Origin: Thermoproteota archaeon
GTDB taxonomy: Archaea > Thermoproteota > Methanomethylicia > Methanomethylicales > Methanomethylicaceae
DNA: 64,000 nt
NCBI GenBank assembly: GCA_029887795.1
Contig: JARXPE010000001.1
Span: 129,386 to 193,385 of the forward strand
Direction of reading: 5' to 3'
The position numbers were made by a program, and so were the translations under genes. Positions 7,825 to 43,007 of the stretch are shown here, piece after piece. The notes below the pieces were generated by a model. It saw only the letters and a program-made list of their open reading frames with translations. It was not told the origin of the DNA and ran no database searches. Within the stretch, counting starts at the first letter, position 1, and each line of letters starts with the position of its first letter.

Positions 7825-8808
<984 letters not shown>

Positions 8809-11019: not shown

Positions 11020-11078
11020 ATGATTACAACACCACTCAAATAAATAACGCTTTTAAAACACTTAAGAGTTATGAGACC

Positions 11079-19641: not shown

Positions 19642-20409
19642 TTAGGTTTTTGATGCCAACCGTGAGATCAGAACCGCGGCGATCCCTGCCCCCACCCCGT
19701 TATCGATATTCACGACAACAAGACCGGGTGTGCATGATTGGAGCATCGTTATTAGTGCGCCCTCGCCCTTCCCACCATAGCCATACCCAACCGAAGACGG
19801 TACGCCGATAACAATCCCCGAGAACAGGCTACTAAATATCGAGGGAAGTGCTCCCTCCATCCCCGCAACAACTATTGCCACCGCAACTTTATCTTCCATG
19901 CATTTTTTGGCTACAGGGAAGATCCTGTGGAGACCAGCTATTCCGACATCGTAAAAGGCAAGAGTTCTAAATCCCATCTCATTGATTACCGCAAGAGCCT
20001 CCTCGGCAACAGGAAGGTCTGCGCTTCCGGCGGTTATAATGGCAATGGGAGGATCCTTCAGAGGTGGCGCTTCGCCTGTCCTTATGGAGACGATGCGCCC
20101 TTTCTCGTAGTAGATGGTTTTAGCCTTCTCCGAGAAGCTCTTTATTAGAAGGCGAGCTTGGGAAGGGGTTACCCTCGTGACTATGGCTAAGCCGTTCTCT
20201 TGAAGCAGTGATTTGACCGCGCTTAATAGTACTTCGTCAGATTTCCCCTCACCAAAGACCAATTCGGGAATCCCTTTCCTTAAATTTCTGGAGATGTCAA
20301 TGCAGGCACCCTCCATCTCCTTCAGAGCAAGTAGACGGATCTTTCTAGTAGCCTCTTCCACATCGATTTTTCCACTCTTTATTTGGTTGAGTATTTCGCT
20401 GATCTCCAA
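19642..20409 (-). CDS. larB: LarB (PurE-like NPN cofactor biosynthesis carboxylase/hydrolase).
   Basis: About 250 aa PurE/AIR-carboxylase-like C-terminal half with an N-terminal extension (IAIITAGSADLPVAEEA ... AVAIVVAGMEGALPS). Confidence 0.7.
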   Translation of the reverse strand: MEISEILNQIKSGKIDVEEATRKIRLLALKEMEGACIDISRNLRKGIPELVFGEGKSDEVLLSAVKSLLQENGLAIVTRVTPSQARLLIKSFSEKAKTIYYEKGRIVSIRTGEAPPLKDPPIAIITAGSADLPVAEEALAVINEMGFRTLAFYDVGIAGLHRIFPVAKKCMEDKVAVAIVVAGMEGALPSIFSSLFSGIVIGVPSSVGYGYGGKGEGALITMLQSCTPGLVVVNIDNGVGAGIAAVLISRLASKT

Positions 20410-20471
20410 AGCCTACACCAATCAATAAATGATATATCGGTAATCACAAAAATGAAGTGTGGTGCTAATAT

Positions 20472-21650
20472 TTGAATATAGTGATAATAGATTGTGCAGC
20501 CGCGGGCGTTTCTGGAGACAAGATACTTGCAGCAGCAGTCCATGCGGGCGGGGAAGATCTCCGACTCAGGGTTGAACGAACCATAAAATCAATTGTGGGC
20601 GACATGGTCTTTTATTTTGAGGATGCTGTAGAAAACGGGCTGAGAGGACTCAGGGTGGTCCATGGTATTCACGGTAGGAAATATGACGGGGATCTTGTTG
20701 AGGCTGTGAAATTAGCATCATCAAGGGTAGGTCTGAGCGGCTGGGGGGTGACTACAGCAACAAAGGCAGCAGAACTGATCCTCGAGGCAGAAAAAGAAGT
20801 TCATGGTGAAGGTACACTCCACGAGTTAGGGGAGATTGATACCATAGTCGATATAGTGGGCACGATAAAGGCATTTGAAGAACTCGGGCTGGAAGGTGCG
20901 GAGTTTTTTACCATGCCGTTAAGGGTAGGATCGGGGCACATAGAGAGTGAGCACGGAACCCTGCCGATCCCGGCACCAGCCACGCTTCAGATAGCTCGAA
21001 AGGGCAATGTGCCAATTTTGCTATCGCCTGAGAGTCATGAATACACAACGCCAACAGGAGCAGCATTGATCGCAGCCCTGACTTCGGGGAAAGTCGCACC
21101 ACCAGCCTTCCGTGTTAAGAGGATCGGTCTCGGGATAGGTAGCCTCAAATTGGATCTCCCCAACATTACCCGTGTCATAATAGGGGAGAGTAATGGCTTG
21201 ATAGAAAGGGTATGTGTGGTGGAAACTAATGTGGATGATGTTAGCGGGGAGATCCTGGGATGGTTGTTTGACAGGTTGAAGGGGGTTGCGGAGGACATTT
21301 CCTTCGTGCCTATATTCATGAAGAAGTCCAGACCGGGATTTTCTGTCAGGGTCGTTGTAAAACCAGAGCTGAAAGAAGAGGCAGTTAGAGTGCTTATGGA
21401 AGAGACAGGGACACTCGGCGTCAAGGTATTTAAGTGTGAGAGAGTCAAGGCTGACAGAGAGCTTTCGGAGGAGACCGTGAGAATAGGTTGCACAGAATAT
21501 AAGGTCAGGGTGAAAAAGAGTAAATCACCATGGAGGTTGAAGCCGGAGTTTGATGATTTGAAGAAAATAGCCATCAGCGAGTGTAAGAGTCTGAGAGAGG
21601 TTATGGAAGAGGTAATTAGACAGGTAAACAGAAATACCAAGAGGAAGTAA
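20472..21650 (+). CDS. larC: LarC (DUF111 nickel-pincer cofactor Ni-insertion protein, CTP-dependent).
   Basis: N-terminal IIDCAAAGVSGDKILAA matches the DUF111 signature. 392 aa. Divergent from larB. Confidence 0.75.
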   Translation: MNIVIIDCAAAGVSGDKILAAAVHAGGEDLRLRVERTIKSIVGDMVFYFEDAVENGLRGLRVVHGIHGRKYDGDLVEAVKLASSRVGLSGWGVTTATKAAELILEAEKEVHGEGTLHELGEIDTIVDIVGTIKAFEELGLEGAEFFTMPLRVGSGHIESEHGTLPIPAPATLQIARKGNVPILLSPESHEYTTPTGAALIAALTSGKVAPPAFRVKRIGLGIGSLKLDLPNITRVIIGESNGLIERVCVVETNVDDVSGEILGWLFDRLKGVAEDISFVPIFMKKSRPGFSVRVVVKPELKEEAVRVLMEETGTLGVKVFKCERVKADRELSEETVRIGCTEYKVRVKKSKSPWRLKPEFDDLKKIAISECKSLREVMEEVIRQVNRNTKRK

Positions 21651-26153: not shown

Positions 26154-27146
26154 TTGTTTGGAGGGTTTTCGTTGGCTAAAAATGGAAAGAGGATTTTAGT
26201 TGCCCTTGGCGGCAATGCAATAAAGCAAGCACATGAGAAAGGAACGGCTGAAGAGCAGTTTAAGAATGTGTACACCACAGCTAAACACCTAGTGAACATG
26301 ATAGAACACCTAGGAAAGGACGACAGGCTCATAATCACACACGGAAACGGGCCTCAGGCCGGAAACTTGGCGCTTCAACAAGACATTGCCAAGGATGTTG
26401 TGCCGCCACAGCCGCTTGATGTCGTGGGTGCCATGACGCAGGGGCAGATAGGCTACATGTTGCAGCAATGTCTGGAAAACATAATGATGGAGAAGGGTAT
26501 GAAGGTCCCAGTGGTCGCTATAGTCAATCAAGTGCTCGTTGACAAAAACGATCCTGAATTCTTTGGGGAGAACGCCTCAAAGCCAGTTGGAAACTTCTTA
26601 ACAGAAGAAGAAGCCATGAAGATGAAGGCGGAGAAGGGGTGGATTGTAAAGAAAGTGAAGCCCAATGCACCAAAGCCATGGAGGAGAGTAGTCCCATCGC
26701 CAGATCCCATTGCAAATGTTGAGGCAGATGTCATAAAGATACTCGTGGACTCTGGCGTCGTCGTCATAGCCTCGGGCGGAGGGGGAATCCCAGTCATAAA
26801 GGAAAATGGGAAGCTCGTAGGGGTCGAGGCTGTGATCGATAAGGATCTGGCTGGCGAGAGGCTTGCAGAAGTCGTGGAGGCGGACATATTCCTGATTCTG
26901 ACTGATGTCGAGAAGGCTAAACTCAACTTTGGAAAGCCAAATGAGAAGGAGATCGACAGGATGACGGTGTCGGAGGCTAAGAAGTACTTAGATGAGGGGC
27001 ATTTCCTCCCAGGCAGCATGGGACCGAAGGTTAAGGCGTGTATTAGGTTCCTGGAGTGGGGAGGCAAAGAAGCGATAATAACTTCGCTGGACAAGGCAGT
27101 AGACGCCCTAGAGGGAAGAACCGGCACTCACATAGTAAAGGATTAA
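26154..27146 (+). CDS. arcC: Carbamate kinase. Likely start at TTG 26172 giving MAKNGKRILVALGGNAI.
   Basis: Amino-acid kinase family with the carbamate kinase N-terminal signature. Confidence 0.85.
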   Translation: MFGGFSLAKNGKRILVALGGNAIKQAHEKGTAEEQFKNVYTTAKHLVNMIEHLGKDDRLIITHGNGPQAGNLALQQDIAKDVVPPQPLDVVGAMTQGQIGYMLQQCLENIMMEKGMKVPVVAIVNQVLVDKNDPEFFGENASKPVGNFLTEEEAMKMKAEKGWIVKKVKPNAPKPWRRVVPSPDPIANVEADVIKILVDSGVVVIASGGGGIPVIKENGKLVGVEAVIDKDLAGERLAEVVEADIFLILTDVEKAKLNFGKPNEKEIDRMTVSEAKKYLDEGHFLPGSMGPKVKACIRFLEWGGKEAIITSLDKAVDALEGRTGTHIVKD

Positions 27147-28931: not shown

Positions 28932-29969
28932 TTATCTCCTTCCTCCCATTGTAAGGGCCATAATGCCCTTCTGTCCGTGTAGCCTGTTCTCTGCCTCGTC
29001 CACTGAGACGGACCATCTATTTGAGAATATCACCTCGGGTTCGACCTCAAGACCGACGTCGGCAGGCAGGCAGTGCATCCAGATACTGTTCTTGCGAGTC
29101 CTGTCCATCAGCTCGGGTGTCGTCTTCCAAGCGGCCAGGTTGTGAGTCTTCTTGTACTCCTCGTGTAGCTTTTCGTCGTAACCTCCTGCCTTTAAAAGTT
29201 CCCAGCTGCACCATCCCTTAGGATACACAACGAGCGCATCCTCAAAAGCCTCTTCCATATTGTGGACGATCTCGAACTTTGTGCCGTACTGGTCGGCGAG
29301 CTTTCTGGTATATTCCTCGACTGCTGGGTCTAGGTTGAACTTCTCAGGGTATGCTAGGGTGACGTCCATCTGAAGAAGTCTTGTGAAGAAGATTATGTTT
29401 GTCTGAGGGACTGCGACCGGCTTCCATGCGCCAGGGCTGTTGGCATAGCACATCACGAACTTCTTTCCTCTCAGGCTCCTGGCGTTGTATTTTTCGATCA
29501 CGGTCATCACATCTGCGACGCCTTGGCAGGGGTGCCACATATCGCATTCCATATTAATTACGGGGACTGTAGAGGCCTTGGCATACTCTCTCATTGTAAG
29601 GTTGCCTTCTCCGTAGTACTGACCCTTTACATATCTCCTTATGGCGATACCGTCACACATTCTGCTCATAATTGCGGCGGTCTCGTAAATGGTTTCACCA
29701 TGGGTTATCTGGAGCTTTCCTGGATCCAAGTCGTACGCCACGCCACCAAGCTGGGTTATTCCTGTAATGAAAGAGGACCTAGTCCTTGTGGAAGGGTTGA
29801 AGAACAGCGTAAATAGAGATTTGCCCTTGCAAAGATGGTCGTGTCTCTGACCCATTGCGTACTGCCTCTTCAGGTCGAATGAGACGTCCAATACTGTCCA
29901 AAGCTCTTCGTCACTCCATTCTATCTCGGGAGCTATCCAATGTTTTCCATGGAGTTCTGTTTTTACCAA
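28932..29969 (-). CDS. Carbamoyltransferase of the OTC/ATC superfamily with unknown specificity (not canonical OTC/ATC).
   Basis: STRTRSSF, HPCQ and HCLP motifs are present. The ornithine-binding DxxxSMG is replaced by YPKGWCSWE and the ATC RxQxER motif is absent. Confidence 0.8.
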   Translation of the reverse strand: MVKTELHGKHWIAPEIEWSDEELWTVLDVSFDLKRQYAMGQRHDHLCKGKSLFTLFFNPSTRTRSSFITGITQLGGVAYDLDPGKLQITHGETIYETAAIMSRMCDGIAIRRYVKGQYYGEGNLTMREYAKASTVPVINMECDMWHPCQGVADVMTVIEKYNARSLRGKKFVMCYANSPGAWKPVAVPQTNIIFFTRLLQMDVTLAYPEKFNLDPAVEEYTRKLADQYGTKFEIVHNMEEAFEDALVVYPKGWCSWELLKAGGYDEKLHEEYKKTHNLAAWKTTPELMDRTRKNSIWMHCLPADVGLEVEPEVIFSNRWSVSVDEAENRLHGQKGIMALTMGGRR

Positions 29970-30065
29970 ATATCTCCCTCCGAGTTTTTGCTGGAATTGG
30001 GTATTGAGTTTTGGTTTAATAATACTTTCGCGAGGATTTTAAGAAACTATCACAAAAAAAAGAGG

Positions 30066-31445
30066 TTAGGTTAAGGGCTGGTGCTTCCCTCGGGGTATGA
30101 ACCTTCCCATGCCCTTCTTGCCCACGAACTCTCTGTTGTAGACAACAGGTTTGCCCCTCACGAAGACGTGAACAGGCATACCCTTCACTGTGAACCCCTC
30201 GTATATCGAATAATCAATCTTTGAGTGGAGGTTCTTCTGGTTCAGCTCCATCTCATAATTTGGATCGAATACGACTATGTCCGCGTCGCTTCCCACGTTT
30301 AGAGTCCCCTTCTTGGGATAGAGACCAAAGAGTTTTGCAGGGTTGTATGAAACAACCTCAACAAGTTTGTTTAATGAGATCCTGTTTTTGGCAACTCCCT
30401 CGCTGTAAAGTATCGGTATCATCGTCTCAGTGCCAGGGACGCCGTTCGGCACCTTGGTGAAGTTGTCTTTTCCTAGATCCTTCTGGGCGTCCGTAAATGT
30501 GCAATGATCGGTGGCTACGGTGCTTAGTGTGCCGTTTGCAAGTCCCTCCCAAAGAGCCTCGTTGTCTGCCTTGCTCCTCAGGGGCGGCGACATTATATAC
30601 CTCCTGCCCTTCGGGGAGAGGTATTTCTCGTCTGTGAGAACAAGGTAGTGGGGACAAGTCTCCCCGTATAGGTTCGGGTAGAGCTTTTTCATCCTTGAGA
30701 GTTCGGCTACACCCTCTTTTGTGGACATGTGTACTATGTAGAGGTTCCCTCCAGCCGCTGCAGCTAGCGCAAGACCCCTATAAACCGCTTCGCCCTCCAC
30801 GAAGTTTGGTCTGCTCTTGGCGTGGTACTCCGCGGACAATTTTCCAGAGGAGACATGCCGCTCTATTAGGAGCTCCAGAACGGAATTGTTCTCTGCATGG
30901 AGCTGGACCAAGAACCCGAGTTTCTTGCTCTCCTCCAGCATCCGGTATATTCTGCCGTCGTCGCTCATCAGCCCCTCTTTTCTGTATGGCATGAAGAGCT
31001 TGAAACTTGAGACTCCAGCTTCCAAGACCTTTGGGATCTCATTTACGAGGTCTTCAGTTAGGTTTGTCACAGCCACATGTATTCCATAGTCAATGACCAC
31101 TTTGGGATCCGCCTTACCCCTCCATAGCATGATAGTTTCCAAGAAGGTCTTATCCTTCGGCTGTATCGCAAAGTCCAAGATTGTGGTGACCCCACCAAAT
31201 GCTGCCGCTATTGTGCCGTACTCAAAGTCGTCGACCGTAGTGGTCCCCATGAACGGCATCTCCATATGTGTGTGGGCATCTATGCCCCCGGGCATGACGT
31301 ATTTGCCTGAGGCGTCCACGACCTCTTCTGCTTTTTCAGTAATATTTGATGCGATACTCACAATCTTGCCGTCCTTGACGCCTATGTCCGCTTTGAATGT
31401 GTCCTTCGGTGTGACTATAGTTCCGTTCTTTATTAATAAGTCCAT
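30066..31445 (-). CDS. Dihydropyrimidinase / D-hydantoinase (cyclic amidohydrolase).
   Basis: GGIDAHTHMEMPFMGTTTVDDFEYGTIAAAFGGVTTILDF signature. Start adjusted to MDLLIKNGTIV. Confidence 0.8.
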   Translation of the reverse strand: MDLLIKNGTIVTPKDTFKADIGVKDGKIVSIASNITEKAEEVVDASGKYVMPGGIDAHTHMEMPFMGTTTVDDFEYGTIAAAFGGVTTILDFAIQPKDKTFLETIMLWRGKADPKVVIDYGIHVAVTNLTEDLVNEIPKVLEAGVSSFKLFMPYRKEGLMSDDGRIYRMLEESKKLGFLVQLHAENNSVLELLIERHVSSGKLSAEYHAKSRPNFVEGEAVYRGLALAAAAGGNLYIVHMSTKEGVAELSRMKKLYPNLYGETCPHYLVLTDEKYLSPKGRRYIMSPPLRSKADNEALWEGLANGTLSTVATDHCTFTDAQKDLGKDNFTKVPNGVPGTETMIPILYSEGVAKNRISLNKLVEVVSYNPAKLFGLYPKKGTLNVGSDADIVVFDPNYEMELNQKNLHSKIDYSIYEGFTVKGMPVHVFVRGKPVVYNREFVGKKGMGRFIPRGKHQPLT

Positions 31446-31494
31446 TATAAAGCCTCCAATATTAATATAGAAAAAGAAGCGTTTAAACACTCAC

Positions 31495-32718
31495 CTATTT
31501 TGTGACCTTCTTCCATGTTATGCATCCAGGCACAGGACAGAGATGTGTGCATAGGGAGCAGGCGTCGCACTTCTCCTCGTCGACTTCAGCGGACTTGCCT
31601 TGCTCGAACTTGATTGCTTGGTAACCGCCATCGCGACATGCCACATAGCAAAGACCGCACTTTATGCATAGGTCCTTGTTGATGCTGGCCACGACAGTGT
31701 AGTCCTTGTTGAGTTTAGACCAAGCCGTAAGTCTGGGGAGAGTCTTACCAATGATCTCTTGGACGGATGAGAATCCTTTATCTGCTAGGTAATTGGTGAG
31801 TCCGTCGACAAAGTCAGAGATTATTCTGTAGCCCCTCCACATAACTGCGGTACAGACTTGGACGCTGCCTGCGCCCACGAGGAGGTACTCCACAGCGTCC
31901 TTCCAAGTGGTTATCCCGCCTATTCCTGAGACTGGGATATTTGTTGCCTGTGCGATTTGGGCGACGCATCTGAGACCTATGGGCTTGACGCCAGGTCCTG
32001 AGAGACCTCCAAAAGTGCTCATCCCGTCGACTGTGGGTATCGGCTCAAAGGTGTCAATGTTTATACCTATCAGGCCGAGCACGGTATTTATCGCAGATAT
32101 GGCATCGGCACCAGCCTCCTCAGCAGCCTTGGCGGTAAACGCGATGTCTGTGACGTTCGGGGTTAGCTTCACCATCACTGGGACCGAGGAGCCGCGCTTT
32201 GCCGCCTTTGTCAGCTTCTGGATTAGTTCTGTTCTTTGACCGATGAATGCGCCCATGCCCCGCTCAGGCATACCATGTGGGCAGCCAAAGTTCAGCTCTA
32301 GCATGTCGACCCCGGCTTCGCTCACCACTCTAGCTAGTTCTTCCCAGTCCTCCTCTTTGCACTCAGCCATGATACTGCCTATGAGTGCCTTTTCGGGGAA
32401 CTTCCTCTTGATCTCTTTAATCTCGTTAACCCATGTGCCAACAGGCCTCTTTGAGACTTCCTCAATGTTTTCGAATAGTATCATCTGCTTTGTCTCAAAG
32501 CCCATCACGCCAAATCTGTTCTTTAGGTCGTAGACAGGCGTCTTGTCCGGCTTTATTGTCTTGGTGACAGCTCCAGCCCAACCAGCCTCGAAAGCCCTCA
32601 TGATCATCTCACCAGTGCATGTCGGGGGCGCCGATGAAAGCAGGTACGGGCTCTCCAGCTCAAGGTTGCAGAATTTTACGGATATATCCGGTTTTGAAAC
32701 CATTTTTCTCACTTCCAT
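31495..32718 (-). CDS. preA: Dihydropyrimidine dehydrogenase subunit PreA (DHODH-like TIM barrel plus two [4Fe-4S] ferredoxin motifs).
   Basis: DHODH-like core with C-terminal [14 protein letters not shown] and [15 protein letters not shown] lies 4 nt after the preT stop. Confidence 0.8.
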
Positions 32719-32722
32719 AACT

Positions 32723-34084
32723 CTATTTCTTAGGACTCTTCCCTCCGGAGAGGAACTTGTCAATAGCAGCCGCAGCTTTCTTGCCCTCTGCCACTGCCTC
32801 GACCACAGTCTCACCGCCGTTTACGGCATCGCCTCCCGCAAATATGCCTTTTATGGAGGTGGAGAAGTTCTCGTCCACGACGATAAGCCCTTTTTCGGTC
32901 TTGACACCATAGGACTTCAGCAACTCTTCGTCTGGTTTCTGCCCGATTGCGACTATCACGGAATTTACATCGAGGCGGAACTCCGAGCCCTTTATGGGCT
33001 TTACCCCCCTCCTCCCAGATGAGTCGGGCTCGGTTAATTCCATCTTCACGCACTCAATTGCTTCCACGCTTTTTTCACCCAATATCCTGACGGGGGCGGT
33101 GAGCAACAGGAATTCGACACCCTCCTCCCTCGCCTGATTTCTGCCGTAAGGCACCGCAGGCATTTCTGCGAAAGACCTCCTATAGACTATGTATACCCTT
33201 TCTGCCCCGAGCCTCACAGAGGCGCAGGCTGCATCTATGGCGGTGTCCCCACCGCCGATCACTGCAACCCTCTTACCTTTGAGGTCGGGCGCCTTACCCT
33301 CCCCCATCAACCATTTTGCGACGGATTGTAGAAATTCCTGTGCCGGATAAACGCCATTGAGATCCTCGCCCGGTATACCAAGTTTTTGAGACTTTGTGGC
33401 ACCGATGCCCACGAAGACTGCATCATACTCCTTCAGGAGGGATTTGAGGTCAGTGATTTTCTTGTTGGTGACAAAGTTAATGCCATACTCCTTTATGAGG
33501 TCTATCTCAGACTCTGGGACGGACCAAGGTGCCTTCCAGGGAAGGATGCCGTAAAGTAGCAGACCACCGGGTTTGGGGTTTGCGTCAAAGACAGTGACGC
33601 CGTATCCCATGCGCGCCAGCTCGTATGCGGCCGATAATCCAGCCGGACCTGCGCCCACCACCGCAACCTTTTTGTTTTTGGAACGCGACTTCGGGAACTT
33701 GACGAGTCCTTTAAGCTTCTCTTTCTCGTAGGCGAACCTCTGAAGCATTGAGATTGCCACGGGCTCCTCGTTTAGGTTCCTCCTGACACATTTCGACTCG
33801 CAGAGTCGCTCAACCGGACAGACATAACCACATTCACCACCTAAGATGTTGCTTTCTCGTATCACCTTGGCTGCACCGTAGAAGTTTCCAGTCTTTATTC
33901 TGTAAATGAATTCAGGAATGTTGATTCCAGCTGGGCAGGCTGAGATGCATGGGGCGTCAAAGCACATGAGGCACCTTGAGGCTTCGTAGACCGCAAGTCT
34001 GTCGTCGAGATTTGAGACGTATGGAGCGAAGCTAGAAACCCTCTCATGCGGAGGAATGGTTTTAGTATGGACTCTACCTGACAT
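32723..34084 (-). CDS. preT: Dihydropyrimidine dehydrogenase subunit PreT (GltD-like, NAD(P)H/FAD binding, N-terminal Fe-S).
   Basis: CLMCFDAPCISACP plus two Rossmann motifs, VAVVGAGPAGLSAA and VAVIGGGDTAIDAA. Confidence 0.8.
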   Translation of the reverse strand: MSGRVHTKTIPPHERVSSFAPYVSNLDDRLAVYEASRCLMCFDAPCISACPAGINIPEFIYRIKTGNFYGAAKVIRESNILGGECGYVCPVERLCESKCVRRNLNEEPVAISMLQRFAYEKEKLKGLVKFPKSRSKNKKVAVVGAGPAGLSAAYELARMGYGVTVFDANPKPGGLLLYGILPWKAPWSVPESEIDLIKEYGINFVTNKKITDLKSLLKEYDAVFVGIGATKSQKLGIPGEDLNGVYPAQEFLQSVAKWLMGEGKAPDLKGKRVAVIGGGDTAIDAACASVRLGAERVYIVYRRSFAEMPAVPYGRNQAREEGVEFLLLTAPVRILGEKSVEAIECVKMELTEPDSSGRRGVKPIKGSEFRLDVNSVIVAIGQKPDEELLKSYGVKTEKGLIVVDENFSTSIKGIFAGGDAVNGGETVVEAVAEGKKAAAAIDKFLSGGKSPKK

Positions 34085-34150: not shown

Positions 34151-34837
34151 ATGGATCTCTCAGAAGGAAGGGTTGTAAAAGGTATCGTATTCGATCTGGA
34201 CGGTACACTAGTTGACTCCGTCGACTCTATTTGGAGGTCCTCTGATTACGTGCTAAGGAGTAATGGATACCGCGGGTTAGACCGTGAGGACGTCGTGAAG
34301 GTGATGGGTAAGACCATCTTTGACTTATTTCTGAGCGTGGAGCCCAGATTGAGTCCACAGGAGCAGCATAAACTGTTCGAGGAATATAGGAGAACTTATA
34401 TGAACTTCATAGAGCACACCAAGCTGATCCCTAAGGTAAGGGAGATCCTTCTGTTTCTAAGATCGAGAAGATTGAAGATGGCGGTCGTCACCACGAAGAG
34501 TAGGGAAAACGCCGAGAAGATACTATCCTTTTTCGGAATAAGAAGCTTCTTTGATTTGGTTATAGGATTTGAGGACGTTAGAGAACACAAGCCCTCGGCA
34601 GAGCCCATAATGAGGGCAGCTGAAGGGCTGGGTCTTCAAGCCTCGGAGTTGGTTGTGGTCGGGGACACCGAGGTCGACATCAGGGCGGGGAGAGAGGCGG
34701 GAGCATTAACGGTTGCCGTTAAGACGGGCGTAACTCCTTTAGAGAAGATTATAGCTGAGAGTCCAAACTTTTTGATTGAGAGTGTGTCGGACCTGCCTGA
34801 GGTTTTAATGCGAAACGGTATAGCTACGGGTGAGTGA
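34151..34837 (+). CDS. HAD-superfamily hydrolase (phosphatase, PGP/PpaX-like).
   Basis: VKGIVFDLDGTLVDS motif I. VVVGDTEVD motif. Confidence 0.7.
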   Translation: MDLSEGRVVKGIVFDLDGTLVDSVDSIWRSSDYVLRSNGYRGLDREDVVKVMGKTIFDLFLSVEPRLSPQEQHKLFEEYRRTYMNFIEHTKLIPKVREILLFLRSRRLKMAVVTTKSRENAEKILSFFGIRSFFDLVIGFEDVREHKPSAEPIMRAAEGLGLQASELVVVGDTEVDIRAGREAGALTVAVKTGVTPLEKIIAESPNFLIESVSDLPEVLMRNGIATGE

Positions 34838-36119
34838 TGTTCTTTAGTATCTCATCGAACCGCCCTGCAGCAATGTCAATGTGTTCGCGGGTCAGGACCA
34901 ACGGAGGCTCTATTCTTATGACGTTGCCCTCTAACCCTCCGAGACCCACAAGGATCTTTTTCTTCCACGCTTCTTGCAGGAAGCTAACAGCTTCCTCTCT
35001 TGCGGGAACCTTTGTAGACCTGTCTTTCACCAGCTCGATCCCAAGAAAGAGCCCTATACCCCTGACATCTCCGATAATCTCGTATTTCTCCTGTAAGGAC
35101 TCCAGCCTGCGCTTAAAATATGAGCCGTTCTCCTTAACCTTTTCCATGAGACCGCCCGTTAGCTCCTCCAGGACAGCCTCCGCAGCAGCACATGCCAAGG
35201 CGTTTCCACCCAAGGTGGAGTAGTGCTCCCCAGGTCGAAGGGCTGAGTCGAGCTCCTCCTTGTAGATGGTTACACCGAGAGGGAGACCGTTGGCGATGGC
35301 TTTCGAGGTTGTCATCACATCCGGTATGATGCCATAGTGCTCAATACCCCAAAGTTTGCCTGTCCGACCGTTTCCAGATTGTACCTCATCCGCAATGAAG
35401 AGTATGGAATACTTGTCTAAAACCTGCTTGACTTCCTTGAAGTAATCAGAAGGAGGTATGATCATGCCACCGTTGGCCAGCATGGGTTCTGCCAATAGTG
35501 CTGAAATCGAGTCCCCCCCAACCTCGCATTTTATCACGTCCTCCATATACTTTACGCAGGCGAATCCACATTCGGGGCAGCTTCTATGCCCGAGCGGGCA
35601 CCTATAGCAATAGGGGTCGGGTGCAAACACCACTGGCGCGAATGGACCTAGTCCAACCTTCCAGCTTGACTGACCCAGAGCACTCATGGCGTAAAAAGTC
35701 CTGCCGTGAAACGACCTGTGTAGGGCGATTATGTAGGGTCTCTTCTTGACACGCTTCACGAGGGAGATCGCCGTCTCGTTGGCCTCTGAGCCGCTGTTCG
35801 TGAAGAAACTCTTGGTTAGGGCACCACCAGGAGAAAGTTCAGAGAGCCTTTTTGCAAGTCTTGCGGTGTAATCCAAGTAGTAGAGTGAGGATGTATGGAA
35901 GAGCTTGCGCATCTGCGCCTCAACTGCCCTGATTACACTCTGGTTCGACCAGCCCACATTGACTATGGATACGCCAGCGTATAGGTCGATGTAGGCATCC
36001 CCATCAATGGAGTAGACGATGTCATCAACAGCCCTATCTGGAACGAATGGATAGTAGTGCCTGTACATTCGCGAGAGGTAACGTTCGGAGAGGGCTATGA
36101 TATCTTTAGATGGGTTCAT
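34824..36119 (-). CDS. Class III PLP-dependent aminotransferase (omega-aminotransferase, candidate beta-alanine aminotransferase).
   Basis: Class III fold with PLP lysine region MTTSKAIANGLPLG. Carries an inserted Cys cluster CYRCPLGHRSCPECGFAC. Confidence 0.75.
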   Translation of the reverse strand: MNPSKDIIALSERYLSRMYRHYYPFVPDRAVDDIVYSIDGDAYIDLYAGVSIVNVGWSNQSVIRAVEAQMRKLFHTSSLYYLDYTARLAKRLSELSPGGALTKSFFTNSGSEANETAISLVKRVKKRPYIIALHRSFHGRTFYAMSALGQSSWKVGLGPFAPVVFAPDPYCYRCPLGHRSCPECGFACVKYMEDVIKCEVGGDSISALLAEPMLANGGMIIPPSDYFKEVKQVLDKYSILFIADEVQSGNGRTGKLWGIEHYGIIPDVMTTSKAIANGLPLGVTIYKEELDSALRPGEHYSTLGGNALACAAAEAVLEELTGGLMEKVKENGSYFKRRLESLQEKYEIIGDVRGIGLFLGIELVKDRSTKVPAREEAVSFLQEAWKKKILVGLGGLEGNVIRIEPPLVLTREHIDIAAGRFDEILKNITHP

Positions 36120-36179: not shown

Positions 36180-36524
36180 TCACTTGGGAGGCGCGTTGAC
36201 TGCGATGAGCCACAGCGGTGTCTTTCCGATGTTCTTTATGGAATGGGGAACGTTTGGCGGAAAAACGAGGGCGTTGCCTGCCTTCACCTTGTACTCCTCG
36301 TTACCTATTGTGACCAGCGCCCTACCCTTCAGTATGTAGTAAGCTTGTTCGAATGGGTGGGTATGGGGATCTGCTCTACCACCAACCTCAAACTCAGACC
36401 TGAACATAGAGAGGTTCTTGCACCCAACATTTGCCTCCTCAAGTAAGACTCTAGTTATGCACCCATAGTGCAGCGGAGGGACAAAGGTGCGTGCTTCTTT
36501 TGGATCTATAACACGTTTCGTCAT
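36180..36524 (-). CDS. Cupin-domain protein.
   Basis: HTHPFEQAYYILKG ... GNALVFPPNVPH cupin motifs. Confidence 0.6.
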   Translation of the reverse strand: MTKRVIDPKEARTFVPPLHYGCITRVLLEEANVGCKNLSMFRSEFEVGGRADPHTHPFEQAYYILKGRALVTIGNEEYKVKAGNALVFPPNVPHSIKNIGKTPLWLIAVNAPPK

Positions 36525-36678
36525 TTAAAACACCTTGAAGTATTTGGGCATCTAGGACTTAAATAAGTGTTGGCAAGAAATATGAGAAATTGCCACTTTT
36601 TGATGCTTTTTGTGTTATTGTTCGTTGCTAGTTGTTGGTGTTCGTATTTTTTGCTCATTATTTGCTAATTTTATGTCG

Positions 36679-37446
36679 TCAGAGTGGAATGAGAGCCCTT
36701 ATGTTGGAGTAGGTGATCATCTGGATGTCCCTTCCACCAACCCCAGCGCGGTCCAGGTAGTGGGCAACCCGTGGGAGGGAGAGCGGATCTGAAGGTTTGT
36801 TGCCAATATCGCTGTTGAGTACGATGCCCTCCGGACCGTTCTTTAGTATAACTTCATGGACGTCTTTTGGGGTGAGTTTGCCAGGTTGGACTGTCAGACC
36901 CACGTTGGCACCTATGGACCTCACCTTCGCCACTAGGTCGGGAGTTAAATGATCAATAATTACCCTAGCGGGATCTACATTCTCAGACTCGATGATTCCG
37001 AGGAGTTTGTCCACGATCTTTTCTTTGTTGTTCCTCGGGGTGTGCATGATCATTGGTACGGGGTACTCGTTTGCGATCCGAATCTGCTGGGTCAATACGT
37101 ACTCCTCTTCTTGGCTGCCAGTCTCTAGACCGACCTCACCGAGTGCAGAGGCTTTCTCGTTATCAAAGAGTGCGAGGATGTGGTCTAGAACTGCCTTGAG
37201 ATCCTCCTCGGGGATGGACCTCGGGTGAATGCCCACGGCAACCCTCGAGCTTATACCGTATGAGCTGAGTCTCATTGGCTCCTCTTCCATGACCCAACGG
37301 AACAGGTCACGCATGGTCGAGAAGCCCAATGGTTGAACAGGGAAAAAGGAGCAGATGATGACGCCTTCTACACCAGCGACGGACATAAGCTCAAGGTCTT
37401 CCGGACCCCTGAGGTAAGTATGGGTATGAGAGTCGATGAACCTCAA
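36679..37446 (-). CDS. TatD-family metal-dependent hydrolase / DNase.
   Basis: MRFIDSHTHTY N-terminus. TIM-barrel hydrolase pattern. Confidence 0.7.
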   Translation of the reverse strand: MRFIDSHTHTYLRGPEDLELMSVAGVEGVIICSFFPVQPLGFSTMRDLFRWVMEEEPMRLSSYGISSRVAVGIHPRSIPEEDLKAVLDHILALFDNEKASALGEVGLETGSQEEEYVLTQQIRIANEYPVPMIMHTPRNNKEKIVDKLLGIIESENVDPARVIIDHLTPDLVAKVRSIGANVGLTVQPGKLTPKDVHEVILKNGPEGIVLNSDIGNKPSDPLSLPRVAHYLDRAGVGGRDIQMITYSNIRALIPL

Positions 37447-40537: not shown

Positions 40538-41251
40538 GTGACCATCGAAGATTGTACAGAAAATCTAATTAAGTTTTCGTATGAATATTGGAAACATTGC
40601 GAGGGACGATGGGTGGGCAATGTTAAACTTGAGGCGCTCAAAGAGGCTCTACTTGAGCAGAATCAAAGAAAGGCGAAAGATCTCACAGAGGAATTTTTGC
40701 GGGAAGGGGTGGAGCCAAAGGAGATAATTGATGTGATATCTGAGGGCCTAAGATTAATTGGAGATCTGTTTGAGAAGGGCGAGTTCTTTCTGCCGGAGGT
40801 TATGAGGGCAGCGAATGCAGCCAAGGCATCTTTGGGCGTCGTGTTACCAATGATGGTTAAGGAGAATGTTGGTGATGGGCGAGGAGTGATTGCGATAGGC
40901 TCGCTGGGACCACATGACATCGGAAAGACCATAGTATCTTCGATGTTAATCGCAGATGGTTTCAAGGTGCTGGACATGGGCATCAACGTGACGCCGAGCA
41001 TCGTGGAGGATTTCCTAAGAAATAATAAAGTGGATATACTCGCCCTCTCAATTCTGCTAACATCCGACATAGATAAAGGTGCCAACATTATCGAGAGGGC
41101 AAGGAAGGTCTTAAGCGGTCTCAAGGTGATGGTGGGTGGAGCGGCTATGAGCCAAGATATTGCAAGAAAAATAAGGGCTGACGCGTACGGTAGGGACGCA
41201 AGCGAGGCTGTGAAGATAGCAAGAGAGCTTATTGGGGGTAAAGAGAAATGA
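40538..41251 (+). CDS. Corrinoid (B12-binding) methyltransferase-associated protein (MtaC/MttC/MetH-B12-domain-like). The real start is possibly GTG near 40604.
   Basis: B12-binding DxHxxG motif (GSLGPHDIGKTIV) and an N-terminal helical cap (EFLREGVEPKEIIDVISEGLRLIGDLFEKGEFFLPEVM). Confidence 0.75.
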   Translation: MTIEDCTENLIKFSYEYWKHCEGRWVGNVKLEALKEALLEQNQRKAKDLTEEFLREGVEPKEIIDVISEGLRLIGDLFEKGEFFLPEVMRAANAAKASLGVVLPMMVKENVGDGRGVIAIGSLGPHDIGKTIVSSMLIADGFKVLDMGINVTPSIVEDFLRNNKVDILALSILLTSDIDKGANIIERARKVLSGLKVMVGGAAMSQDIARKIRADAYGRDASEAVKIARELIGGKEK

Positions 41252-42138
41252 TGACAATGAGAACGACCGTTATCGGGAGTTATCCGGTGGTTGGTGAGGG
41301 TCTGGAGGCAATAAAGACTGCTGTGAACGACCAGCTGGAGGCAGGCATTGAAATAATAAGCGATGGGCAGACGAGAAAGGACATGGTGTGCTATTTCGCA
41401 GACCACATACCCGGGTTTAAGGTTGAAGACGAGAAAGCTAAGATTGTAGGAAAGGTGAGACCCCCAGAAGAAACTCCCGTAGTGGACGACTTGATATTTG
41501 CGAGAAAGTTGGCTGGTGAAAGGGCCGAGGTGAAGGCCATAATTACCGGTCCTGTCACAATGGTTTTCTTTTCCGAACTTGCCCCAGAGGCACCCTATGC
41601 CGGGTTCCGGGACGAGAGGCTTTACGAGGATGTAAGCGAAGCCCTAGCTGTGGAGGTGGAGATTATTCAGAAGGCGGGCTTTACGAAGATACAGATAGAC
41701 GAACCCAGTTTTTCAATCGGGGCGCCCATGAATATAGGGAGAAAGGCGCTCGAATCGATCGTGTCCGACTTGAAGGGAACAAAAGCGCTTCATGTTTGTG
41801 GAAACCTTAGGAGGGTCTTCGGAGAGATCGTGAAGATAGAGGGGTTGGACGTCCTAAGCTTTTCATTCAAGGATAACGTCAGCAACTTTGACAGCGTTGA
41901 GAAGAAGCTTCTGAAGGATTACTCAAAGAAGCTCGGCGTGGGTTGTGTAAGTACGATGAGCCCAGAGGTGGAGGACGTGGACTCTATTAAGAAGGTACTG
42001 ACAAGGGCGGTTGGGTTATATGGATCGGAAAATATCGAGTGGGTTCATCCCGATTGTGGGCTGAGATCCTTCAAAAGGGATGAGGCGTTCATGAAACTCA
42101 AGAACATGGTCACTGCGGTGAGGGAGCTGAGGGGATAA
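41248..42138 (+). CDS. Core-MetE-like protein (cobalamin-independent methionine synthase C-terminal-domain homolog, short archaeal form). Putative methylcorrinoid:homocysteine methyltransferase.
   Basis: 296 aa. MRTTVIGSYP start typical of the Meth_synt_2 domain. ATGA overlap with the corrinoid protein gene. Confidence 0.6.
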   Translation: MMTMRTTVIGSYPVVGEGLEAIKTAVNDQLEAGIEIISDGQTRKDMVCYFADHIPGFKVEDEKAKIVGKVRPPEETPVVDDLIFARKLAGERAEVKAIITGPVTMVFFSELAPEAPYAGFRDERLYEDVSEALAVEVEIIQKAGFTKIQIDEPSFSIGAPMNIGRKALESIVSDLKGTKALHVCGNLRRVFGEIVKIEGLDVLSFSFKDNVSNFDSVEKKLLKDYSKKLGVGCVSTMSPEVEDVDSIKKVLTRAVGLYGSENIEWVHPDCGLRSFKRDEAFMKLKNMVTAVRELRG

Positions 42139-43007
42139 TGGAAGTCCGCTTGGGTAACATAAAATTTGGCGATGTGCCGGTCATGATAGGCAGCCTGTTC
42201 TATAAATCGGACAGGAAGGTAATCGATCATAAAAGAGGCGATGTAAACAGACCAGCACTCCTTAGGGAGCTGAAGAGTGTCTCAAAACTCAAGGAAAGGA
42301 CGGGACTGTTTCATGCCCTAGACATAATAGCGGAAACTCCGGAGGCGATGGAAAGGTACATAGCCGCAGTTGCCGAGTTAACCGATGATCCCTTGCTCAT
42401 AGGGGGCCTCAATGAAGATACCAGAATCGCAGGTTACAGGAAGGCGTCCGAGTTGGGTCTGGTGGACAGGTGCGGTATAAATTCGGTGTCGCTTGCGACC
42501 AGCGAAAGGGAGCTAGAATGCATCAAAGATAGCGGGATTAAATTCGCAATAGTCCAGACATTGGACCCAGCTGCGGTTTACCCAGAAGAGAAGCTTCAAG
42601 TTTTGAAAGGAGGGCTCCTTGAAAGGTGCAGGAACGCCGGCATCACTGATGTTGCTATAGATGTCGGCATAATAGACTTCACGAGTGTCTGGCTGGCGGC
42701 AGAGTCGATTAAGGCGGTGAAGAATGAGCTTGGACTGCCTGCTGGATGTGCGCCCTCCAACGTTGCTTATCAGCCCCTGTTGAAGAAGAAGGTGACCAAG
42801 AGGGTCGCGAGATCGATGAATGTGGCACTCAACACGATGATACAAATCGCGGGGGCAGATTTCATACTGTATGGACCACTTAGGGCAGCAGGGTATATAT
42901 TCGAGGCAGCAGCCACAGTTGAGGGAATAAAGGCTTATGGAGAGAAGTTGAAGGGGAAGGCTTTTGAGAAGAGCCACCCACTTTATAAGTTCCTAGCTAA
43001 ACTCTGA
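42138..43007 (+). CDS. MtrH-like pterin-binding methyltransferase (methyl-H4MPT/THF:corrinoid methyltransferase).
   Basis: Resembles MtrH (FGDVPVMIGSLFYK ... LIGGLNEDTRIAGYRKASELGLVDRCGINSVSL). Confidence 0.7.
   Translation: MEVRLGNIKFGDVPVMIGSLFYKSDRKVIDHKRGDVNRPALLRELKSVSKLKERTGLFHALDIIAETPEAMERYIAAVAELTDDPLLIGGLNEDTRIAGYRKASELGLVDRCGINSVSLATSERELECIKDSGIKFAIVQTLDPAAVYPEEKLQVLKGGLLERCRNAGITDVAIDVGIIDFTSVWLAAESIKAVKNELGLPAGCAPSNVAYQPLLKKKVTKRVARSMNVALNTMIQIAGADFILYGPLRAAGYIFEAAATVEGIKAYGEKLKGKAFEKSHPLYKFLAKL

Follow-up and report, generated by a model that had tools for sequence, protein, structure and literature searches.

We found, in the window (the whole 64 kb stretch of DNA analysed here), a transcarbamylase (TCase) gene that lies beside genes for reductive pyrimidine degradation (Table 1), and from its sequence and gene context we predict, with moderate confidence, that its product is a catabolic beta-alanine/beta-aminoisobutyrate carbamoyltransferase acting in an ATP-yielding variant of that pathway; beta-aminoisobutyrate would probably be accepted alongside beta-alanine. 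In the proposed route, PreT/PreA would convert uracil or thymine to the dihydropyrimidine, and the dihydropyrimidinase (DHPase) would open the ring to give N-carbamoyl-beta-alanine (or N-carbamoyl-beta-aminoisobutyrate). The TCase, running in reverse, would then take the place of hydrolysis by beta-ureidopropionase, with phosphate attacking the carbamoyl carbon to release beta-alanine and carbamoyl phosphate. From the latter and ADP, the carbamate kinase (CK) would form ATP, CO2 and NH3, for a net yield of one ATP per pyrimidine by substrate-level phosphorylation, and the class-III aminotransferase may next deaminate the beta-alanine. We infer the direction of the reaction, its coupling to the kinase and the substrate, the last being N-carbamoyl-beta-alanine because of the gene neighbours (PreTA and dihydropyrimidinase). 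For uracil, the window offers a predicted source: it also encodes a type III RuBisCO, a ribose-1,5-bisphosphate isomerase and an NMP (AMP) phosphorylase, an enzyme that in T. kodakarensis accepts UMP as a substrate (PMC9700705).

Table 1. Features of the TCase locus, in window coordinates
Feature	Coordinates	Strand	Basis and remarks
Carbamate kinase (CK)	26154..27146	+	TIGR00746 arcC, 410 bits (cut-off 358)
Transcarbamylase (TCase) gene	28932..29969	-	345 aa, TTG start; PF02729 + PF00185
Intergenic stretch 5' of TCase	29970..30065	-	Shine-Dalgarno GGAGGG and A/T-rich box AAAGnATTATTAAACC
Dihydropyrimidinase / D-hydantoinase (DHPase)	30066..31490	-	TIGR02033, 540 bits (cut-off 393); likely true start M16, near 31445
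PreA-type dihydropyrimidine dehydrogenase subunit	31495..32814	-	NF006183, 538 bits (cut-off 335); likely true start M33, near 32718
PreT-type dihydropyrimidine dehydrogenase subunit (NAD(P)H/FAD + Fe-S)	32723..34084	-	Pfam Fer4_20 ('DPD domain II') + Pyr_redox_2
HAD-family phosphatase	34151..34837	+	Pfam HAD_2; reaches no NCBIfam cut-off
Class-III (omega-) aminotransferase	34824..36119	-	Pfam Aminotran_3, E 2e-95; reaches no NCBIfam cut-off
Small cupin	36180-36524	-	Pfam
TatD-like metal hydrolase	36679-37446	-	Pfam

A transcarbamylase, probably of the knotted, YgeW-related branch

Translation of the TCase ORF gives 345 codons that fill the tabulated interval exactly on the minus strand, which the preliminary description had left unstated; the plus-strand reading is full of stops and was rejected. 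The TTG start is real: across 12 related loci it is kept as TTG, or as GTG in the deepest branch, GGAGG(G) stands 5-8 nt upstream of it in each of them, and homologues begin at the same residue. The A/T-rich box sits ~55 nt upstream of the gene and is conserved, recurring together with GGAGGG in 10 related loci despite diverged flanking sequence; it is possibly an archaeal BRE/TATA promoter.

The product matches both Pfam domains of the family (OTCace_N, E 3e-36; OTCace, E 2e-26) and, with this two-domain fold, the SxRT, HPxQ and HxLP motifs and the beta4 Arg (R111), belongs to the Asp/Orn carbamoyltransferase superfamily. The preliminary description had reported intact carbamoyl-phosphate motifs (STRTR, HPxQ and HCLP) and no ATC-type RxQxER, and a regex search of the translation bears this out, placing STRTR at 60-64, HPCQ at 146-149, HCLP at 299-302 and WCSWE at 253-257, and finding no RxQxER, DxxxSMG, SMG or FxKxSxRT. 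An AF2 model (pLDDT 96.2) has the TCase fold, and Foldseek superposes it on OTCase, AOTCase and a YgeW-like structure with TM 0.85-0.86. Both sequence signatures of the knotted TCases (PMC4581275) are present, namely a proline-rich loop (S178-P-G-A-W-K-P-V-A-V-P-Q189) and an extended 120s loop, whose segment RRYVKGQYYGEGNLTMREYA is about as long as that of AOTCase and ~8 residues longer than that of P. furiosus OTCase. Within the superfamily, the TCase is most likely a member of the knotted branch related to YgeW.

The translated ORF is identical to NCBI protein MDH5810820.1. Database records name the protein "ornithine carbamoyltransferase" (OTCase) or AOTCase, and it reaches no curated NCBIfam TCase cut-off. 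As an OTCase it scores 207 against 281 (TIGR00658) and 209 against 306 (NF001986); it has no DxxxSMG or SMG, and residue 58 is N (FFNPSTRTR) rather than the Lys of FxKxSxRT. ATCase is rejected by the absence of RxQxER and FxExSTR and a score of 93 against 263 (NF002032), and PTCase by 179 bits against 500 (TIGR04384). For AOTCase/SOTCase, the score is 201 bits against 288 (NF003384), where a true Lysobacter AOTCase (L090) scores 640; the 80s loop is ~12 residues shorter than in that verified enzyme and carries Q87, the substrate-binding Trp of the extended 80s loop is absent, and the motif is STRTR instead of SMRT/SLRT. The Glu and Lys that form the second-substrate pair of AOTCase/SOTCase (E144/K252) are nevertheless present, as E141 and K251, both invariant in the clade of the window TCase. 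The curated YgeW identity also fails (TIGR03316, 191 against 500; NF005538, 199 against 453), with 345 aa against 396 aa, a C-terminus reading AENRLH(R329) instead of ...SWK(363)PY... and a 240s insertion ~11 residues shorter than in YgeW, whose extended 240s loop carries two additional helices. The preliminary description had proposed that the second substrate is none of ornithine, aspartate and putrescine, which agrees with the missing signatures and unreached cut-offs of OTCase, ATCase and PTCase; the gene context goes further and points to N-carbamoyl-beta-alanine as the likely substrate.

The 240s segment and clade-specific residues

YPKGWCSWELL occupies the site of the OTCase SMG loop: HMMER aligns 'YPKGWCSW' with 'YTDVWASM(G)' of Pyrococcus furiosus OTCase (1pvv). 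The earlier suggestion that a WCSWE segment replaces this loop therefore holds as to position, but not as to uniqueness, for the segment is the clade's own form of the "YPKxW" with which the 240s loop of knotted TCases opens (YPKSWAPY in YgeW). The Lys of YPKxW is a conserved second-substrate ligand (K270 in YgeW, K252 in AOTCase, here K251), and in knotted TCases the principal determinant is not the 240s loop (PMC4581275). The motif is not a chance occurrence: none of the residues G252, W253, C254, S255 and W256 varies among the 16 clade members compared (69-99% identical overall).

Other clade-specific changes near the active site (N58, R112-Y113, E141, W145, G180-A181-W182 and V305) are at least as telling as the 240s segment, and the carboxylate ligands K183 and K251 are kept. 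Invariant in the clade and absent from homologues in urate contexts are 44 positions, enriched near the active-site segments defined in the literature (15 of the 44, with 7.9 expected; P = 0.004, for windows chosen post hoc). Among the clade residues, hydrophobic or aromatic side chains take the place of polar or charged ones (Y95 for K, W145 for Y/D, W182, V305 for R, P311, F315 for D), a trend that, judged from alignment positions, suggests a smaller and more hydrophobic pocket. If the prediction holds, N58, E141, W145, G180-A181-W182, G252/C254 and V305 would together form a testable signature of specificity.

Gene neighbourhood and its conservation

Among solved structures, the DHPase best matches D-hydantoinases and dihydropyrimidinases (1k1d, E 1.6e-141); as an allantoinase, dihydroorotase or ErtD it falls below every cut-off, and the D-hydantoinase/dihydropyrimidinase cut-off is passed. 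The PreA-type subunit, with an FMN/pyrimidine site and two [4Fe-4S] clusters, shares 42% identity with E. coli PreA and 41% with residues 529-847 of pig DPD. It keeps the NIE, LNxxCPH and NT motifs of the pig-DPD pyrimidine site, in contrast to the UacX-type and the fused reductases of urate clusters; the UacX type lacks the CPH segment. PreT is 35% identical to E. coli PreT, and its stop codon lies ~4 nt from the likely PreA start. The class-III aminotransferase, which is syntenic with PreT/PreA in nine related loci, has as its best PDB match a Pyrococcus 'GABA aminotransferase' (7vno) and as its top-scoring NCBIfam model the 'acetylornithine aminotransferase family' (below cut-off); we regard it as a candidate beta-alanine aminotransferase. 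The HAD-family phosphatase is likewise syntenic in related loci (50-77% identity). For the cupin and TatD-like neighbours, the sole informative PDB match is the uncharacterised AF_1765, the others being generic; both genes adjoin the dihydropyrimidinase even in a locus without PreTA (L011).

A tblastn search of the 64 kb with E. coli YgeX, YgeY, SsnA, XdhD, XanQ and GuaD returned no homologue. The scanned ORFs of the cluster include no carbamoylase, whether of the M20 or of another type, and the window ORFs scanned included no arg genes. The cluster has a GC content of 0.49-0.53 and its surroundings one of 0.45-0.49, a difference uninformative on horizontal transfer.

Close relatives of the TCase, drawn from a metagenome scan, form a clade of 69-99% identity found in Methanomethylicia only. 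About ten distinct Methanomethylicia contigs keep the gene order AT3-HAD-PreT-PreA-DHPase-TCase-(MIPS)-CK (MIPS, inositol-1-phosphate synthase), with TCase identities of 84-99% and neighbours down to 50-80%. In each related locus that has enough upstream flank, the DHPase gene immediately precedes the TCase gene, and CK lies within ~4 kb of the TCase in 10 of the 14 related loci with enough flank, with no CK inside 10 kb in the other four (L096, L098, L101 and L102). The conserved operon combines a DPD-type PreTA and a dihydropyrimidinase with a nearby CK, and no carbamoylase occurs among the scanned ORFs of the cluster. In a pattern scan of a genome collection, relatives among the matches listed reach at most 46% identity and include no Methanomethylicia genome; homologues at 40-50% identity sit mostly in urate-type clusters (YgeY, SsnA, XdhD, carbamate kinase).

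One feature of the window counts against the proposal: CK is convergent with the TCase, behind the unrelated MIPS gene, and is not co-transcribed with it. Among the related loci, the four with no CK inside 10 kb, those of the deepest branch (L011 and L106) with no PreTA nearby, and a further one (L120) with no dihydropyrimidinase within 8 kb also weigh against it. Phosphorolysis of ureides is thermodynamically uphill and must be pulled by the kinase, as noted for YgeW (PMC12507026). In loci with no adjacent kinase, the TCase might instead use this reaction to return the carbamoyl group to carbamoyl phosphate that feeds biosynthesis.

Alternative functions

The most conserved core of the locus is DHPase-TCase-CK. 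It is retained in L011 (75% identity), which with L106 represents the deepest branch; in both loci CK directly adjoins the TCase and PreTA is absent from the nearest 10 kb. This would allow an ancestral substrate derived from a hydantoin or another cyclic ureide. This bears on a second reading, which we judge unlikely though still worth weighing, that the enzyme is a catabolic TCase for some other N-carbamoyl compound (e.g., N-carbamoyl-alpha-amino acids from 5-substituted hydantoins) or a broad 'carbamoylase by phosphorolysis', PreTA being a later addition; D-hydantoinases and dihydropyrimidinases take both ring sizes, and industrial D-hydantoinases are the top PDB matches of the amidohydrolase. 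In the window and ~10 related contigs, however, PreT-PreA is co-oriented and immediately upstream, PreA retains its DPD pyrimidine-site motifs, and a natural source of hydantoins is not evident. Moreover, in L120, an independent instance, a CK 73% identical to that of the window, PreT (54%) and PreA (55%) adjoin a TCase from another subgroup (47% identity), with no dihydropyrimidinase within 8 kb, which links PreTA, TCase and CK without a hydantoinase; W182 and V305 of the Methanomethylicia clade recur in this TCase, although position 305 is R in its own nearest relatives.

It is highly improbable, in our estimate, that the TCase is a functional YgeW orthologue serving a so far unrecognised route of reductive purine (urate) degradation in archaea, with 2,3-diureidopropanoate or a mono-ureido derivative as the compound phosphorolysed. 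Among solved and characterised relatives YgeW is indeed the closest, YgeY, SsnA, XdhD and CK stand beside most homologues at 40-50% identity, and in a rough NJ tree without support values the clade groups with urate-cluster proteins. The functional context of YgeW is nonetheless missing, since only HyuA-like, CK and PreT-like matches occur and neither the 64 kb nor the related loci hold YgeX, YgeY, SsnA or XdhD; the window has a single ring-opening amidohydrolase, its PreA is of the DPD type and not of the UacX or YgfK type, and Q160 of YgeW is replaced by E and R at position 305 by V, with a total of 44 clade-invariant positions absent from urate-context homologues.

We give very little credence to an anabolic role, be it as an (acetyl)ornithine TCase with a CK-like synthetase, in a module reversed to uracil (N-carbamoyl-beta-alanine to dihydrouracil to uracil) or in making carbamoyl phosphate for biosynthesis and not ATP: the database names, the match of E141/K251 to AOTCase E144/K252 (PMC4581275), the aminotransferase's leaning to the 'acetylornithine aminotransferase family' model, the four loci without an adjacent CK and the chemical reversibility of every step speak for it, but DxxxSMG, the FxKxSxRT lysine and the Trp-containing extended 80s loop of AOTCase/SOTCase are all missing, the OTCase and AOTCase cut-offs are unreached, arg genes are absent from the scanned window ORFs, the true argD-argF pairs sampled are immediate neighbours and belong to another clade (in the NJ tree without support values), and CK passes the arcC equivalog cut-off.

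Significance

A catabolic beta-alanine TCase was considered possible but 'remaining to be proven' in a 2015 review of the TCases (PMC4581275), and our literature search, with most subscription journals outside its reach, returned no later description of a beta-alanine/ureidopropionate TCase. To our knowledge, reductive pyrimidine degradation has so far been treated as a purely hydrolytic route of nitrogen salvage. If the beta-alanine assignment is right, it would constitute a new EC activity (beta-alanine carbamoyltransferase) that fills the gap named in that review, add a new substrate class to the well-studied TCase family, and make this the first ATP-yielding route of pyrimidine catabolism and a route of nucleobase degradation in archaea, with energy conserved from pyrimidines in parallel to the arginine deiminase, agmatine and (2025) urate pathways.

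Methanomethylicia are recently cultured, methyl-reducing methanogens of the TACK archaea. For them, the pathway would offer a possible non-methanogenic, substrate-level source of ATP from nucleic-acid necromass and would complement the archaeal pentose-bisphosphate pathway. We see about an even chance that Methanomethylicia, and perhaps Hadarchaeum and the L120 lineage, carry out an energy-conserving pyrimidine fermentation in which bases freed by NMP phosphorylase and type III RuBisCO each give one ATP via carbamate kinase; T. kodakarensis merely excretes its bases (PMC12628685). The sequence clusters that contain the window TCase, with dozens of members, and the short YgeW-like family at large are annotated as ornithine/N-acetylornithine carbamoyltransferase or as hypothetical, and if the proposal holds, such labels would have inflated the predicted capacity for arginine biosynthesis.

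Comparison with known systems

The preliminary description had suggested comparison with YgeW, an apt choice, for YgeW (3q98, 2yfk) is the best match among solved structures (E 7e-48; 39% identity over 312 aa). The two proteins share the proline-rich loop, YPKxW with its conserved Lys, a short 80s loop with a Gln (Q87, YgeW Q98) and the lack of an Arg after HCLPAD (V305, YgeW I335); both are associated with carbamate kinase and with a cyclic amidohydrolase supplying the ureido substrate, and both presumably run phosphorolytically for ATP. In contrast to YgeW, the window TCase is ~50 aa shorter and lacks the additional helices at both termini; its C-terminal sequence resembles that of OTCase (AENRLH) and has R329 where YgeW has K363. 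YgeW Q160 corresponds to E141, D124 is replaced, S200-Y201-G202 corresponds to G-A-W, and the neighbours are PreTA and dihydropyrimidinase instead of YgeX, YgeY, SsnA and XdhD. YgeW phosphorolyses 2,3-diureidopropanoate and yields ATP with the kinase YqeA (bioRxiv 10.1101/2025.04.24.650524; PMC12507026), two sources that disagree on which ureido group is cleaved. According to the former it is the 3-ureido group, and on that assignment the YgeW substrate amounts to N-carbamoyl-beta-alanine with an extra 2-ureido group.

The short YgeW-like TCases (~325-350 aa; Clostridia, Chloroflexota, Acidobacteriota, Thermoplasmatota and others), at 40-50% identity, share the length, architecture, AENRLH C-terminus, proline-rich loop and YPKxW of the window TCase and usually adjoin carbamate kinase. 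They differ in sitting by YgeY (M20), SsnA, XdhD and UacX/YgfK, i.e., in urate-type clusters, and in having Q at 141, R at 305 and polar residues in place of W145, W182 and F315; they are uncharacterised, and none reaches an NCBIfam cut-off. AOTCase/SOTCase (e.g., 3kzk) has in common with the window TCase the proline-rich loop, the extended 120s loop and the Glu/Lys pair, and superposes on its AF2 model (TM 0.85-0.86, rmsd 2.3-2.5 A); both AOTCase and SOTCase, however, serve anabolism and are encoded in arg clusters.

The catabolic pairs OTCase/CK (arginine deiminase pathway) and PTCase/CK (agmatine pathway) belong to the same superfamily, have the same carbamoyl-phosphate site and follow the logic proposed here, in which phosphorolysis of a ureido group gives carbamoyl phosphate and then ATP via carbamate kinase. 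Catabolic OTCase and PTCase are unknotted, use DxxxSMG or a 230s loop and act on other substrates. Classical reductive pyrimidine degradation (PreTA/PydA, PydB, PydC) has its first two steps and their enzymes in common with the cluster; in place of its hydrolytic third enzyme, PydC, which is missing from the cluster, there are a TCase and CK, an exchange that would capture the ureido-bond energy in ATP. Its PydD extension, with a beta-alanine aminotransferase downstream, reportedly described by Yin et al. in 2019, resembles the cluster's aminotransferase.

Neighborhood and predicted pathway

We found a transcarbamylase (TCase) in a conserved archaeal gene neighborhood that we predict, with moderate confidence, to be a catabolic β-alanine carbamoyltransferase of ATP-yielding pyrimidine degradation. 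In the proposed route, a dihydropyrimidinase (DHPase) would yield N-carbamoyl-β-alanine (or, from thymine, N-carbamoyl-β-aminoisobutyrate), which the TCase would convert with Pi to β-alanine and carbamoyl phosphate; carbamate kinase (CK) would then use carbamoyl phosphate and ADP to form ATP, CO2 and NH3. A class-III aminotransferase (AT3) is a candidate for β-alanine removal. Phosphorolysis is the simplest reading because the window's TCase cluster contains a catabolic-family TCase and CK, with no carbamoylase among its scanned ORFs. Against it stand the unfavorable equilibrium of phosphorolysis and the position of CK, which is convergent with the TCase, not co-transcribed, and absent from the surrounding 10 kb at 4 of the 14 loci.

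The order Trx-TatD-cupin-AT3-HAD-PreT-PreA-DHPase-TCase-(MIPS)-CK, where PreT and PreA (PreTA) are dihydropyrimidine dehydrogenase (DPD) subunits and MIPS is inositol-1-phosphate synthase, is retained across about 10 distinct contigs, including those whose neighbors have diverged to 50–80% identity, and DHPase always lies directly upstream of the TCase in the query clade (the window TCase and its close relatives). In the deepest branch (L011; 75% identity), cupin-DHPase-TCase-CK is retained with no PreTA near the TCase, which favors the alternative that the enzyme acts on another N-carbamoyl substrate made by the adjacent hydantoinase; we regard this as unlikely. Separately, the cupin (114 aa) and TatD-like hydrolase (255 aa) genes adjoin the DHPase/TCase genes in all related loci, including that branch; the top PDB match of the hydrolase is the uncharacterized AF_1765.

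The assignments of the neighboring enzymes bear on both the β-alanine reading and a true YgeW function, that is, the knotted catabolic TCase of reductive urate degradation. PreA exceeds its equivalog cut-off (538 vs 335), shares 42% identity with E. coli PreA and 41% with the pig DPD pyrimidine domain, and retains the NIE, LNxxCPH and NT motifs, which carry the uracil-binding Asn residues and the catalytic Cys; these motifs are altered in the UacX-type and fused reductases found in urate clusters. Homologs of YgeX, YgeY, SsnA, XdhD, XanQ and GuaD were not found by tblastn in the 64-kb window. With the urate-pathway genes missing from the window and PreA of the DPD type, a true YgeW function is highly improbable. 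CK scores above the arcC equivalog cut-off, and the amidohydrolase exceeds that of D-hydantoinase/dihydropyrimidinase (540 vs 393); its assignment as allantoinase, dihydroorotase or ErtD was rejected, each cut-off being missed.

A separate line of support comes from a second archaeal lineage (L120), in which a TCase adjoins CK, PreT and PreA that are 73%, 54% and 55% identical to those of the window, with no dihydropyrimidinase within 8 kb. That TCase, from another subgroup with a long 80s loop and 47% identical to the query, nevertheless has the W182 and V305 of the query clade; in its nearest relatives, position 305 is Arg and the neighbors differ. This single case appears to represent a second recruitment, in which a TCase joined a DPD and CK module.

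The gene, its family and its active site

ORF translation gives 345 codons on the minus strand; the plus-strand reading was ruled out, its frame being full of stops. Pfam domains PF02729 (E 3e-36) and PF00185 (E 2e-26) are present. The preliminary description, of intact carbamoyl-phosphate motifs and a WCSWE segment replacing the SMG loop of ornithine TCase (OTCase), is accurate: the translation has STRTR (60–64), HPCQ (146–149) and HCLP (299–302) and lacks RxQxER, DxxxSMG and the OTCase FxKxSxRT lysine, and HMMER places YPKGWCSW over the DVWASMG loop of Pyrococcus OTCase. The unusual TTG start is genuine, being conserved in 12 related loci (GTG in the deepest branch) with GGAGG(G) ahead of it; a AAAGnATTATTAAACC box about 55 nt upstream recurs in most of the 12. 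These elements suggest that the TCase may have its own promoter, apart from PreT-PreA-DHPase.

None of the NCBIfam TCase models scores the query above its curated cut-off: OTCase (209 vs 306), acetylornithine TCase (AOTCase; 201 vs 288), YgeW (199 vs 453), putrescine TCase (179 vs 500) and aspartate TCase (ATCase; 93 vs 263). The closest solved structures, 3q98 and 2yfk (~1e-47), are both YgeW-type, and a very confident AlphaFold model (72 input homologs; pLDDT 96.2, pTM 0.94) fits OTCase, AOTCase and a YgeW-like structure equally (TM 0.85–0.86). Judged by its sequence features, the query is a mosaic within the TCase group: its short 80s loop with Gln and its lack of Arg after HCLPAD match YgeW; its Glu at the YgeW Q160 position matches AOTCase and succinylornithine TCase (SOTCase); and its AENRLH C-terminus, with the carbamoyl-phosphate-binding Arg, is shared with OTCase, AOTCase and SOTCase. 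With the diagnostic signatures absent, the cut-offs missed and no arg genes among the scanned ORFs of the window, an anabolic or reverse role, including (acetyl)ornithine TCase, is as improbable as the YgeW function.

The WCSWE segment is the query clade's form of the family-wide YPKxW motif (YPKSWAPY in YgeW), whose Lys is a conserved second-substrate ligand in knotted TCases (PMC4581275). Both Lys residues for which a role in binding the substrate carboxylate is proposed in YgeW are retained, as K183 and K251. The query clade has 44 (near-)invariant positions whose residues are (almost) absent from 19 urate-context homologs; 15 of these fall in active-site segments placed from the literature (7.9 expected, P = 0.004, with windows chosen post hoc). 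Active-site changes include N58, R112-Y113-G116, E141, W145, G180-A181-W182, G252/C254 and P311; V305 replaces an Arg found in 104 of 105 homologs, and Y95, W145, W182, V305, P311 and F315 put hydrophobic or aromatic side chains in place of charged or polar ones. As read from the alignment, these changes would fit a smaller, less polar substrate without a 2-ureido or 2-amino group.

Relatives and database labels

Identical proteins occur in several Candidatus Methanomethylicaceae (Verstraetearchaeota) MAGs, and relatives at 69–99% identity only in Candidatus Methanomethylicaceae; Hadarchaeum proteins (53%) and a very large set at 40–50% follow. Across about 120 loci annotated by tblastn and precomputed Pfam, most 40–50% homologs lie beside YgeY (M20), SsnA, XdhD, UacX/YgfK and CK of the reductive urate pathway, and those at 32–37% are ordinary argD-argF OTCases. 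In databases, members of the query clade, like all of the short YgeW-like family, appear as ornithine or N-acetylornithine carbamoyltransferase, or as hypothetical. The family is uncurated, since its members miss the NCBIfam cut-offs save one barely over the AOTCase threshold; with no model for it, the arginine pathways predicted for these genomes are probably incorrect.

The Hadarchaeum sister clade shows TCase-amidohydrolase-AFOR-PreA-like, and in archaeal contigs genes for tungsten-type aldehyde:ferredoxin oxidoreductase (AFOR) are repeatedly found beside those for amidohydrolases and YgeW-like TCases, in the place held by XdhD in bacterial clusters; possible AFOR substrates are the heterocycle or an aldehyde, e.g., malonate semialdehyde, which it might oxidize. 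In many urate-type clusters, two TCases stand side by side and are accompanied by CK. The second TCase is ATCase-like in Chloroflexota, where it has an HSLP motif (TIGR00670, 256 vs 237), and in Caldisericia and others it is a short YgeW-like paralog. Such pairs might phosphorolyse both ureido groups of 2,3-diureidopropanoate, yielding two ATP and replacing the YgeY hydrolase.

Locations of the features discussed
Feature	Location	Strand	Remarks
TCase	window 28932-29969	minus	
TCase upstream region	window 29970-30065; equivalents in L093-L103		non-ATG start, strong GGAGGG Shine-Dalgarno, AAAGnATTATTAAACC box
Cupin, TatD-like hydrolase	window 36180-37446	minus	
NMP (AMP) phosphorylase	window 4908-6467	minus	TIGR03327, 708 vs 535
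Type III RuBisCO	window 6504-7823	minus	430 vs 497, below cut-off
Ribose-1,5-bisphosphate isomerase	window 7825-8805	minus	TIGR00511, 426 vs 314
PRPP synthetase	window 8889-9773	minus	
Tandem PurP-like genes	window 10968-13222	plus	
Uridine/purine nucleoside phosphorylase-like gene	window 13232-13933	plus	
Lar-like, corrinoid/methyltransferase genes	window 19642-21650, 40538-43007		
CK-PreT-PreA-TCase	L120 5139-9065		JGI Ga0315280_10000018
AFOR-bearing cluster	L007 5358-11208; also L009, L121		Hadarchaeum-type contig
Twin-TCase urate-type clusters	L028, L031, L034, L036, L038, L040, L043, L044; also L003, L013, L023, L121		first eight Chloroflexota/Actinomycetota

Uracil supply and comparison with known systems

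About 20 kb from the TCase lie genes for NMP (AMP) phosphorylase, ribose-1,5-bisphosphate isomerase and type III RuBisCO, which belong to the archaeal pentose-bisphosphate route; together with the PRPP synthetase and nucleoside phosphorylase-like genes, they could be a source of free uracil for the PreTA-DHPase-TCase module. The NMP phosphorylase of Thermococcus acts on AMP, CMP and UMP (PMC9700705), and T. kodakarensis, being unable to degrade the freed bases, excretes them (PMC12628685). With a module for uracil breakdown, nucleotide catabolism in the window's organism would be complete. Two PurP-like genes (DUF1246/DUF1297; FAICAR synthetase family) adjoin the nucleoside phosphorylase. The window also carries LarB-like (AIRC) and LarC-like (Ni insertion) genes and a corrinoid protein/methyltransferase/MtrH-like set characteristic of methyl-reducing methanogens, in line with the Methanomethylicia assignment.

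A catabolic β-alanine transcarbamylase "remains to be proven" according to a 2015 review (PMC4581275) and goes unmentioned in the same group's 2018 review; we found no description of the enzyme or pathway in the full-text literature, a search outside which most subscription journals fall, so that a report could be missed. The nearest precedent is E. coli YgeW, shown by two 2025 studies to phosphorolyse 2,3-diureidopropanoate in the reductive urate pathway, with YqeA making ATP from the product (bioRxiv 10.1101/2025.04.24.650524; PMC12507026). By the bioRxiv assignment, YgeW cleaves the 3-ureido group and its substrate is N-carbamoyl-β-alanine with an extra 2-ureido group, so the change in specificity would be small; PMC12507026 instead assigns cleavage to the 2-ureido group. 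The proposed β-alanine route follows the logic of the arginine-deiminase, agmatine and urate pathways, applied to pyrimidines: the fold and the energy-conserving logic are known, and the substrate and the pathway variant are probably new.
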